Position numbers and translations under genes: made by a program
Origin: a virus
Taxonomy: Duplodnaviria > Heunggongvirae > Uroviricota > Caudoviricetes
DNA: 26,151 bases
Virus record (IMG/VR): IMGVR_UViG_3300029288_000128
Location: 1-26,151 of that record
Strand: one strand, 5' to 3'
Part shown: piece after piece, positions 4,888 to 7,224 of the stretch
Layout of the letters: every line of letters starts with the position of its first letter
Position numbering within the stretch: position 1 is the first letter of the stretch
Notes under the pieces: model-generated
Told to the model about the DNA's origin: nothing
What the model saw: the letters and a program-made list of their open reading frames with translations, nothing else
The model's database searches: none

Positions 4888-5196
4888 TTAAATTAAGCCT
4901 TTATCTTTGGCGTAGTGTAGGGCATTAAGCACACCCGCCGATTCATCTTGATGACATTCAGTCCTAATGAACTTCTCTTGTTCACCTAAGGTAGGGAATG
5001 TCGTTGCTGTTTGGAGGACAGCAAAGCCTTTGTCAGTCACGCCTTGTTCTCTAGCCCAGCTAGGCGTGCTGATTTCGAAGAATAGCTTCATAAGACAAGC
5101 ATTATGAATTAAGCGAACTTGTTTATCGAGTCGACCTTTATAAATAAGTTCATACATATCAGTTATTTGCTTCCGAGAACGTGGGTCAGACACCAC
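4888..5196 (-). CDS. Hypothetical protein (start uncertain: GTG 5196, ATG 5157 or ATG 5091)
   Basis: ORF track; the annotated start lies inside a repeated promoter-like motif, so a downstream ATG is more likely. Confidence 0.65.
   Translation of the reverse strand: MVSDPRSRKQITDMYELIYKGRLDKQVRLIHNACLMKLFFEISTPSWAREQGVTDKGFAVLQTATTFPTLGEQEKFIRTECHQDESAGVLNALHYAKDKGLI
5145..5196 (-). promoter_or_regulatory. Bipartite promoter-like element, copy C
   Basis: CGTGGGTCAGACACCAC at 5180; minus-strand TATGAACTTA 25 nt downstream. Confidence 0.65.
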
Positions 5197-5429: not shown

Positions 5430-5458
5430 AAGATTATATTTAAGAATTAGCTAAGTTA

Positions 5459-5474
5459 GTGAAGATGTATTCAC
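5459..5474. promoter_or_regulatory. GTGAA-N6-TTCAC palindrome, copy 3 (GTGAAGATGTATTCAC)
   Basis: Intergenic; the stem extends to 12 bp on the minus strand with one G-U pair. Confidence 0.7.
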
Positions 5475-5502
5475 TAACCTAAGCCAAGTCTTAAGCACGC
5501 AG

Positions 5503-5652
5503 TTAAGCTTGATGTTGGCCTGAAGCCTGGTCATCTAGAAATTCTAGCTGGCCTACTTCAGTGTTAAGTATCTTACGGCCAAGGGCTGTAAGTTTAACAT
5601 TGTGCCTGTTGCTTGAACTACAGGCGAAGTTGATTGCATCTTGTGTGTACAT
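5503..5652 (-). CDS. Possible small ORF (49 aa)
   Basis: Not in track. MYTQDAINFACSSSNRHNVKLTALGRKILNTEVGQLEFLDDQASGQHQA*; first ATG downstream of promoter-like copy D. Confidence 0.45.
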   Translation of the reverse strand: MYTQDAINFACSSSNRHNVKLTALGRKILNTEVGQLEFLDDQASGQHQA

Positions 5653-5670
5653 AGATGTAAGTTAATTAAT

Positions 5671-5720
5671 TAAGTTCATAAGTAATTGATAAGCGCAGCC
5701 AATACCGTGGGTCAGACTAC
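5671..5720 (-). promoter_or_regulatory. Bipartite promoter-like element, copy D
   Basis: CGTGGGTCAGACTAC at 5706; minus-strand TATGAACTTA 25 nt downstream, identical to copy C. Confidence 0.65.
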
Positions 5721-6119
5721 GGCATGGCAGGTAGGTCAATGGCCGTAAGTATATATGTGTATTAATATCTGATTCCCCCATGTCTCTATATATGTATGTG
5801 TGTGTGTATAGTAAGCCCCACCAGTTAAATTATTTTTATTTCCCAGAGGATCCCGTTCCTTGGTTGACACTCGGTTAACACTCCCTTTCATGAACTTGAT
5901 CATAAGTTACTCATAAACTTCTCTACTTATGTAATAGATGGTAAAGGCCCGGTCCAGTCCACAAAGCGTTATATTATAGTTACTATCTCTGGACTAGTTC
6001 ATAGAATTAGAGACTATTACACCATGGCCCGGGAACTCTATACACAGTCTTGTCCCAAGTATTAATTAATAACAAATTGATAGGTTTTAATATCACGAAG
6101 ATTAGCCAAACTAAAGGCC

Positions 6120-6147
6120 TTGACATATCGTGTGGATGTGCTATACT
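6120..6147 (+). promoter_or_regulatory. sigma70-type promoter TTGACA-N16-TATACT with extended -10 (TGc)
   Basis: TTGACA 6120-6125; TG 6139-6140; TATACT 6142-6147. Confidence 0.7.
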
Positions 6148-6201
6148 GGTAGGGTAATAATAACGCACGTCTCCATGATTAAATTGCCCCACAATTGATC
6201 T

Positions 6202-6241
6202 AACCAACGGGCCCAACAGGCCTGGTTTTTGTTGTGTTTTT
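6202..6241 (+). terminator. Putative Rho-independent terminator
   Basis: AACCA(acg)GGCC-caaca-GGCCUGGUU followed by a U-rich tract. Confidence 0.5.
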
Positions 6242-6245
6242 AATA

Positions 6246-6600
6246 ATTACCGGAATGGTTAATGGTACATGGTACCAACGTTAACCTCCTTGGCGTTCCA
6301 TTCTGGTGATCATTAAGTACATAAGAGTGAAGATGTCTTCACTTACAATTCAGTGTTGTAGCGTTTAGGGGAAGGCTACCAGAAAACATCTCCTTAATAA
6401 CTTTGCTTTGTGATCAAATAAAATCGCCGCTCTGCCCAGGCCCCGCAACGGCGACTGTGATTTGGTCATAAAGAAAGATGACGACATCCGTGGAAACAGG
6501 GCACGGGTACTTAGTCATAAACACTGATACATAGCCCCAGCTTCTCTACATGAAGCTAACTAAACTCTAATTCACAGGGAATGGGGCCTTAGTACCCAAA
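6246..6600 (+). ncRNA. Candidate structured RNA or long structured leader (family not recognised)
   Basis: Stems 6246-6258/6298-6310 (13 bp, 2 G-U), 6401-6419/6460-6477 (18 bp, 2 G-U, inner 6-bp stem), 6505-6511/6591-6597, 6534-6539/6582-6587, 6540-6544/6552-6556; no long plus-strand ORF seen. Confidence 0.45.
6327..6342. promoter_or_regulatory. GTGAA-N6-TTCAC palindrome, copy 4 (GTGAAGATGTCTTCAC)
   Basis: Intergenic, inside the structured region. Confidence 0.7.
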
Positions 6601-6622: not shown

Positions 6623-7003
6623 ATGAATGAACTTTATTCCGATTGTTTCATGATAGGAACTAATCCTAGCAAAAAAGGAGGAGGTTATGTTGTCACTGAC
6701 AACAAAGGCAATATTATTGATAAAGAAACAATCTACAGACCCGGGTTTACTAACAACGAAGGTGAACTTCTTGGCGTTCTCAGGGCCACAGAATTGATTG
6801 ACAGTCACGGAACTGTTTATACTGACAGCCAAAACACAATCAAGTGGATTAACAGAGGTTATAGTAAAGCACGTCCTGATCTGGGCCACATAATGGCAAG
6901 AGCCAAGAAAAACATAAAGATAAAGAACATAAAGCTTACATGGGTTCGTAGGGAAGTAAACAAAGCCGGTATCACTGTGGAGAAAACTCACAATTTATAT
7001 TAA
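6623..7003 (+). CDS. rnhA: Ribonuclease HI family protein
   Basis: D7, TNNEGEL (E48), YTDS (D68) and WVRREVNKA match RNase HI motifs; the fourth acidic residue is replaced by Gly. Confidence 0.9.
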   Translation: MNELYSDCFMIGTNPSKKGGGYVVTDNKGNIIDKETIYRPGFTNNEGELLGVLRATELIDSHGTVYTDSQNTIKWINRGYSKARPDLGHIMARAKKNIKIKNIKLTWVRREVNKAGITVEKTHNLY

Positions 7004-7027: not shown

Positions 7028-7180
7028 ATGTCTCCAAACGTTTTAAAAAGACAAGAGTGCGAAGTTTACAGCCGTGTTACAGGCTATATGAGGCCCGTGA
7101 AACAATGGAACGATGGTAAGAAGGCGGAATACATGGACAGAAAAACTTTTAAACTAGACAAAATGCTCCCGACTACATAA
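7028..7180 (+). CDS. Stand-alone NrdD (class III RNR) C-terminal glycyl-radical peptide (50 aa)
   Basis: Not in track. MSPNVLKRQECEVYSRVTGYMRPVKQWNDGKKAEYMDRKTFKLDKMLPTT*; R-V-x-G-Y glycyl loop and N-x-G-K-x-x-E-x-x-x-R motif of NrdD C-termini. Confidence 0.88.
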   Translation: MSPNVLKRQECEVYSRVTGYMRPVKQWNDGKKAEYMDRKTFKLDKMLPTT

Positions 7181-7194
7181 GTCTGGAGTTTTTT
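7166..7194 (+). terminator. Putative Rho-independent terminator
   Basis: CUCC-C-GAC-uacauaa-GUC-U-GGAG followed by UUUUUU. Confidence 0.6.
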
Positions 7195-7195
7195 A

Positions 7196-7224
7196 TTGAC
7201 AATTTACAATTTTAATGATAGAAT
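7196..7224 (+). promoter_or_regulatory. Near-consensus sigma70 promoter TTGACA-N17-TAGAAT with TGn extension; predicted leaderless mRNA
   Basis: -35 at 7196-7201, -10 at 7219-7224; ATG 7231 lies 6 nt downstream, at the expected +1. Confidence 0.8.

Follow-up and report, generated by a model that had tools for sequence, protein, structure and literature searches.

A large folded RNA predicted upstream of an RNase HI-like gene in a phage genome, and the variable slot that it occupies

The locus and the predicted fold

The window, by which we mean the whole stretch of 26,151 nucleotides that was analysed, corresponds to the initial 26 kb of a virus record of 90,151 bases that has a terminal repeat. 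The record contains 12 tRNA genes, at 56–62 kb, and two gene-strand switches; the host of the phage is probably a CPR bacterium. The RNA element described here sits at a divergent strand switch, with small genes to its left. To its right the order of the genes is RNase HI-like, a 50-aa gene resembling the C-terminus of NrdD, and then genes of 141 aa and 4731 aa.

A sigma70-type promoter (6120–6147, plus strand), with an extended −10 and 11 of 12 consensus matches, would start transcription near 6154, and promoters of the same type and position are present in the relatives L004, L030, L032 and L052. The leader that follows (6154–6231, plus strand) evolves fast; it contains a terminator-like hairpin (6208–6224) and then a U-rich tract, the two forming a unit at 6208–6242. 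The RNase HI-like gene (6623–7003, plus strand) encodes 126 aa, matches the Pfam families RNase_H and RVT_3, and conserves D7, E48 and D68. The NrdD-like peptide gene (7028–7180, plus strand, Pfam NRDD) is annotated as a feature spanning 7028–7194 together with a terminator-like hairpin with a T run, which is predicted by folding at 7166–7194 on the same strand. The transcript probably ends at this hairpin, and the next promoter follows at 7196–7224.

Two further features lie to the left of the promoter. A second strongly structured non-coding region occupies 5440–5650 (z −7.9 on the plus strand and −3.9 on the minus strand for 5450–5599); it has a GTGAA palindrome within a long hairpin, and its Rfam matches are at chance level only. 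Four copies of a CGTGGG cassette, which is likely to be a phage-specific promoter or operator, are found in the window between 4144 and 5720, upstream of leftward genes, and the 5640–5830 block of this region is conserved in L004, L006, L030 and L032.

We conclude from the sequence that the gene-free stretch downstream of the 6120 promoter encodes a true folded RNA of about 360 bases, which extends from approximately 6232 to 6597. The folding z-score is −5.95 on the plus strand, where none of 100 shuffled sequences folds as well, and −2.12 on the minus strand, so that the dense base pairing reported in an earlier, sequence-only reading of this DNA does exceed that of shuffled controls. The fold predicted for the plus strand has about ten helices, to which a single long-range pseudoknot is added, and 12 of its 123 pairs are G–U. 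There is no conserved ORF in the element (the longest ATG-started ORF on the plus strand has 18 aa), which occurs as a single copy per genome.

The 5′ part of the RNA is a long helix with a three-way junction, H1 (6232–6324, plus strand); when the RNA is folded from the promoter, the U-tract of the terminator-like hairpin supplies the 5′ arm of this helix. The 13-bp stem with which the sequence-only reading began is found at 6246–6258/6298–6310, with its inner 6-bp hairpin, but the helix to which it belongs runs over 6232–6324 and does not start at 6246. H1-type helices of different sequence that capture the U-tract also exist in L004, L030 and L032, which makes four lineages with the window. 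The H1 loop carries a CCUCC motif resembling an anti-Shine–Dalgarno sequence; we rejected it as a feature of the family, for it occurs in the window, in L032 and in the leader of L004 and is absent from L047 and L031.

Next to H1 is a hairpin (6325–6344, plus strand) formed by the palindrome GTGAA-N6-TTCAC, and L047 has a hairpin of another sequence at this place. As had been noticed, the element contains one copy of the palindrome (6327–6342). The genome contains 11 copies, some of them inside genes, where 0.1 are expected; those in the window are at 2086, 3476, 5459, 6327 and 22775, and others are found in the relatives L006, L031, L032, L045 and L052. The palindrome is a genome-wide site and not specific to this RNA, and it is probably a protein-binding DNA site.

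The core is a multibranch domain (6350–6527, plus strand) closed by P1 (6350–6357/6520–6527). It begins with the P2 hairpin (6358–6392), where a conserved purine-rich loop (6363–6374) and a conserved single-stranded linker (6381–6391) form the best-conserved sequence of the family. The long arm P3 (6401–6477) is the arm of 18 pairs described in the sequence-only reading, and its inner 6-bp helix (6424–6429/6449–6454) is also present; the internal loops of P3 are conserved, and its 9-nt terminal loop (6436–6444) carries the 5′ strand of the pseudoknot. The P4 arm (6478–6518) has a counterpart in L047. The 3′ domain (6539–6593, plus strand) consists of P5 (6540–6556) and P6 (6559–6593), and the bulge of P6 bears the 3′ strand of the pseudoknot, in which the last seven bases of the P3 loop (6438–6444) pair with 6583–6589. 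The probability of finding a perfect complement by chance, estimated from shuffles, is 0.003 for the window and 0.012 for L047. Since position 6589 is common to the pseudoknot and to P6a, one of them must be one pair shorter. The sequence-only reading had missed both P1 and the pseudoknot, and its description of the element was incomplete in this respect.

That reading also suggested that the RNA might be a switch, and described a hairpin at 6486–6508 that competes with a stem pairing 6505 with 6597. The hairpin exists, as part of P4, but it is dominant (pair probability 1.0) rather than alternative, and forcing the 6505/6597 stem costs 5.8 kcal/mol. The proposed switch is an artefact, because the stem is predicted only for a sequence truncated at 6246; its probability is 0.0 when the full 5′ arm is included, and no counterpart was found in the homologue.

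Homologues of the RNA and contents of the slot

Syntenic relatives were gathered through matches to the RNase H and to the 141-aa protein. One of them, L034, is 96% identical to the window across the region, and its changes number 10 in the 92-nt leader (6154–6245) versus 5 in the 355-nt element (Fisher p 1e-4). Two of the changes in the element turn P1 pairs into G–U wobbles and two fall in unpaired positions.

Three other relatives, L046, L047 and L049, form one distant lineage, whose homologue of the 141-aa protein is 47% identical. A covariance model trained solely on the window and L034 was run against 164 kb: it matches the element of this lineage (E 6–8e-6), with covariation in P1 and P2, and nothing else in the 164 kb. 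The sole non-coding blastn match between the window and L047 is 6343–6392 (76% over 50 nt, E 4e-5). The L047 RNA has a folding z-score of −5.58.

When the helices of the window and L047 are registered by hand, 25 of 58 pairs are double-changed, 2 are single-changed and none is broken; this count, in which P4b is treated as four invariant pairs, compares two independent lineages over helices that we chose, and it is not a statistical test. The double changes amount to 5 of 8 pairs in P1, 2 of 5 in P2, 5 of 12 in P3a (which also has one conserved G–U), 2 of 6 in P3b, 2 of 3 in P3c, 3 of 5 in P6a and 6 of 7 in the pseudoknot; P5 is invariant between the lineages, and the P4 arm shows one double change between L046 and L047. 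An automatic pair count on a MAFFT alignment, in which P3 is mis-registered, supported P2 only. The objective supports for the structure are the blind match of the model and the shuffle probabilities of the pseudoknot complement. Strand-biased folding, the blind match in a distant relative and the compensating changes all speak for what the sequence-only reading had suggested, that is, a novel non-coding RNA of the phage.

Searches further afield gave no other homologue. Scans of viral contigs with motifs specific to the window or to the type B RNA described below returned nothing, or chance matches in coding genes. GTDB scans gave no matches, nor did annotated phage records, searched by DNA and by RNase H protein, or IMG/VR protein scans with the 141-aa and giant proteins. 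The phage genome contains no antisense copy of the conserved loops.

The sequence-only reading had paired the RNA with the adjoining RNase HI gene. This pairing does not hold among the relatives. In L046, L047 and L049 the NrdD-like gene comes directly after the homologous RNA, no RNase H gene lying between them, and RNase H is absent from the slot in L030–L032, L046–L049 and L052. Conversely, L004, L006 and L010 have the RNase H, and the RNA of their slot is unrelated (type B); the model has no match in ten other phages that carry this RNase H subfamily. Since each occurs without the other, the comparison indicates that the RNA and the RNase H gene are independent cargo in one slot. The junctions suggest that the leader of the NrdD-like gene received RNase H as an insertion; the NrdD-like gene follows in most syntenic relatives.

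By the same comparison, the phage family as a whole has at least three different structured RNAs, all of them large, in this slot. The type B RNA (L004:2018–2335, L006:3689–3994, L010:1–125) is conserved, structured and undescribed; L004 and L006 are 72% identical, and 8 of 59 predicted pairs are double-changed between them. In one test the fold of L004 was better on the minus strand, so that the type B RNA may be encoded on either strand. The type C RNA (L030:3968–4790, L031:1–480, L052, L032:1975–2345) is also structured, with folding z-scores of −5.51 and −3.50, and its carriers have no RNase H. All that it shares with the RNA of the window is an architecture of the H1 type and a 3′ end that is similar. 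Type C varies by a 40-nt hairpin indel and, in L030, L050 and L051, by an inserted endonuclease VII HNH gene, which sits in the loop of a hairpin. The short leader of this gene repeats a strand of the closing helix, and the insertion site in L030 is the GTGAA-N6-TTCAC palindrome.

In the more distant relative L045 the equivalent slot contains about 620 nt of structured non-coding DNA (L045:1206–1830; z −4.4 on the plus strand and −4.7 on the minus strand). The models R1 and R2 detect neither types B and C nor the L045 element, and a likeness of the latter to the P2 loop that was seen by eye is thus unsupported.

A few neighbouring features can be mentioned here. Upstream of the type B RNA, an ORF of 111–113 aa with no Pfam family (L004:1497–1924, L006:3217–3624) lies inside an inverted repeat and forms the loop of a long-range helix. 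Structured and often ORF-poor DNA is found directly upstream of RNase H in several small phages that carry this RNase H subfamily (L001:2620–2990, L002:2850–2990, L018:2190–2490, L021 and L041), with z-scores of −3 to −5 that are mostly strand-symmetric. L002 also encodes a tmRNA (L002:4055–4428, 89 bits) about 1 kb downstream of its RNase H gene.

Comparison with known RNAs

No match at the gathering threshold of Rfam 15 was found in the window, in agreement with the sequence-only reading, which had recognised no known family. At relaxed thresholds the element has two chance matches to miRNA families (E 3.7–4) and its L047 homologue none. That this reading could match no RNase P, tmRNA or group I or II core agrees with tests of motifs and models.

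For group I introns, the motif test is the informative one, because Rfam RF00028 misses even the two group I introns of the same phage. These introns, which lie outside the window (G000, 62.9–65.5 kb and 87.3–89.3 kb) and contain endonuclease-like ORFs, interrupt a gene that probably encodes the capsid protein and the gene of the RtcB RNA ligase. They have 0–1 mismatches for most of the P, Q, R and S motifs, whereas in the element these motifs have 2–3 mismatches and come in the wrong order. The element resembles the phage's own introns in its size class, its pseudoknot and the HNH gene inserted in a loop of a slot-mate RNA. It differs from them in having neither these motifs nor a P3/P7 topology, and no gene is split: the element is flanked by a non-coding leader and by an uninterrupted ORF that has a start codon of its own.

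Domain V of group II introns (RF00029) and RNase P (RF00010) gave no match at E 10, in searches whose controls worked; CR I of RNase P has 4 mismatches and CR V more than 4. RNase P RNAs of diverged form exist in CPR bacteria (PMC8172020). ARAGORN finds no tmRNA or tRNA gene in the window, and a T-arm motif requires 3 mismatches. No reverse transcriptase (PF00078), such as a retron or another RT-associated RNA would have as its partner, is matched in the genome. Neither the window nor L047 matches a riboswitch family, and in a thermodynamic model, calculated without ligand, no two exclusive folds gate the terminator or the start codon. Likenesses to motifs of SAM-I and cobalamin riboswitches and to CR II of RNase P are lost in L047.

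HEARO and other OMEGA RNAs are structured RNAs of about 350 nt beside a gene with a nuclease fold. The element is similar in size and structure and also adjoins a nuclease-fold gene; unlike them, it has no Rfam match, and the RNA and the nuclease each occur apart and form no fixed pair.

The closest likeness may be to ROOL and GOLLD, RNAs of phages and prophages that contain pseudoknots and kissing loops and form RNA-only particles; their loop–loop pairings may be intra- or intermolecular, and the function of these RNAs is unknown (PMC12286853). Like ROOL (RF03087) and GOLLD (RF02032), the element is phage-encoded, large, multi-helix and pseudoknotted and has no ORF, features that are predicted here from the sequence alone. 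It differs in length (about 360–450 nt versus 600–800 nt), matches neither model, lies outside the tRNA island and is so far confined to one phage family. RF03087 gave no match at E 10, with a control set that did not include ROOL. Most plausibly, by analogy, the element acts like ROOL and GOLLD, yet is a member of neither. We classify it as a new family, in the sense that it matches no catalogued Rfam family, of a known kind of RNA. Our literature searches found no large structured RNA described for CPR phages.

Possible functions of the RNA

The explanation that we favour, and to which we give about an even chance, is that the element is an orphan phage RNA that works in trans, serving as a folded scaffold or a decoy. 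Host RNA polymerase would transcribe it from the host-type sigma70 promoter, past a terminator that is leaky, as part of a short transcription unit made of the leader, the RNA, an optional RNase H gene, the NrdD-like peptide gene and the final terminator. The RNA would then fold into a compact particle locked by the pairing between the P3 loop and the P6 bulge, either within one molecule or between copies, and during infection would show the conserved single-stranded motifs 6363–6374 and 6381–6391 to a candidate partner, a protein or an RNA of either the host or the phage. Exchangeable cargo fits better than a regulator of one gene, because the gene downstream varies (RNase H in the window, the NrdD-like peptide in L047) and because unrelated structured RNAs fill the same slot (L004/L006 and L030/L032). 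Two observations count against an RNA acting in trans: a start codon always follows the element at 20–60 nt, which is what one would expect of a cis leader, and it has no terminator of its own at its 3′ end.

A second explanation, which is possible but rather doubtful, is that the element is a folded 5′ region that controls how much transcription passes the 6208–6242 terminator or how well the first gene downstream is translated; it could be a ligand sensor, or a structure that recruits ribosomes in a host without Shine–Dalgarno sites. In every relative the element does lie between the promoter and the first ORF, in both lineages about 30 nt separate the end of the pseudoknot strand from the start codon, H1 captures the U-tract of the terminator in four lineages, and most syntenic relatives have the same NrdD-like gene downstream. 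On the other hand, the terminator lies upstream, so that H1 would be made too late to prevent termination. The fold analysis gave neither an alternative structure that gates the start codon or the terminator (the competitor that had been proposed has a probability of 0.0) nor a match to a riboswitch family, and the same position is taken by three unrelated RNAs, in front of differing genes.

A ribozyme, or a self-splicing intron without ORF, that processes the transcript is improbable. Its size and pseudoknot, the HNH gene in the loop of the type C slot-mate (L030/L050/L051) and the group I introns elsewhere in the phage would be in keeping with this idea. The failure of the P, Q, R and S motifs, which are well preserved in the phage's own introns, the null results for domain V and RNase P, and the fact that no joinable exons were found argue against it.

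The sequence-only reading had speculated that the transcript is an R-loop pre-primer for the initiation of replication, cut by the RNase H of the phage or of the host. We consider this still less probable. ColE1-type pre-primers need a conserved G-rich tract that seeds the RNA–DNA hybrid. The G-rich stretch at the 3′ end of the window's element is the pseudoknot strand, and L047 has no run of four G. The model for such a mechanism, ColE1 RNA II, is a structured RNA that forms a hybrid with DNA and is cleaved by RNase H (PMC6380287). The element resembles it as a long, structured predicted transcript with a sigma70 promoter, near a possible origin and next door to an RNase H gene. It departs from it in having no conserved G-rich tract and no promoter for an antisense RNA I across its 5′ part, in being exchangeable among relatives, and in that the RNase H gene is unlinked. 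The element is at the divergent strand switch, with the GC-skew minimum at 4986 and the AT-skew minimum at 6469, but skew tracks gene orientation throughout the genome; the minima coincide with the strand switch and are not independent evidence. Several relatives have DnaA-box-like sites about 30–130 nt upstream of the promoter, whereas no DnaA box occurs in the gap of the window itself when up to one mismatch is allowed. A DnaB-like helicase is encoded in the genome, and a search for a Toprim primase found none. An origin should not be swappable for three unrelated RNAs, and the RNA and RNase H fail to co-occur; an adjoining RNase H at a strand switch is thus weak evidence for an R-loop origin. 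It is possible that an origin lies in 5430–6120 and is activated by transcription from the promoter, without the element as a primer. Among the relatives, the region upstream of RNase H in L001, with DnaA boxes and a G-rich cluster, is a better origin candidate than the element of the window.

Last, it is hardly credible that the element is no RNA gene but a set of DNA hairpins or protein sites whose folding is due to chance: it does include one copy of the genome-wide palindrome, but its G–U pairs are conserved, the changes in L034 preserve wobble pairing, folding is strand-biased, and long-range helices covary, the pseudoknot among them.

To return to the scaffold or decoy, a broader version of this idea, which we put forward tentatively and regard as somewhat unlikely, is that the locus is a dedicated RNA-cargo slot of these phages, whose hosts are probably CPR bacteria, in which at least three unrelated folded RNAs do the same job from one promoter and can be exchanged. 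If this is true, the job of the slot may be to provide particles that decoy a host defence or a translation factor, in the manner of the anti-defence proteins that replace one another at a hotspot.

For ROOL and GOLLD the structures are solved and the function is unknown; the locus described here adds a compact family with a pseudoknot backed by covariation, small enough for probing and structure solution. It also offers a natural comparison, that of one slot with three unrelated RNAs, some of which have an inserted HNH gene. If the three RNAs of the slot share a target, the slot itself would point to their function.
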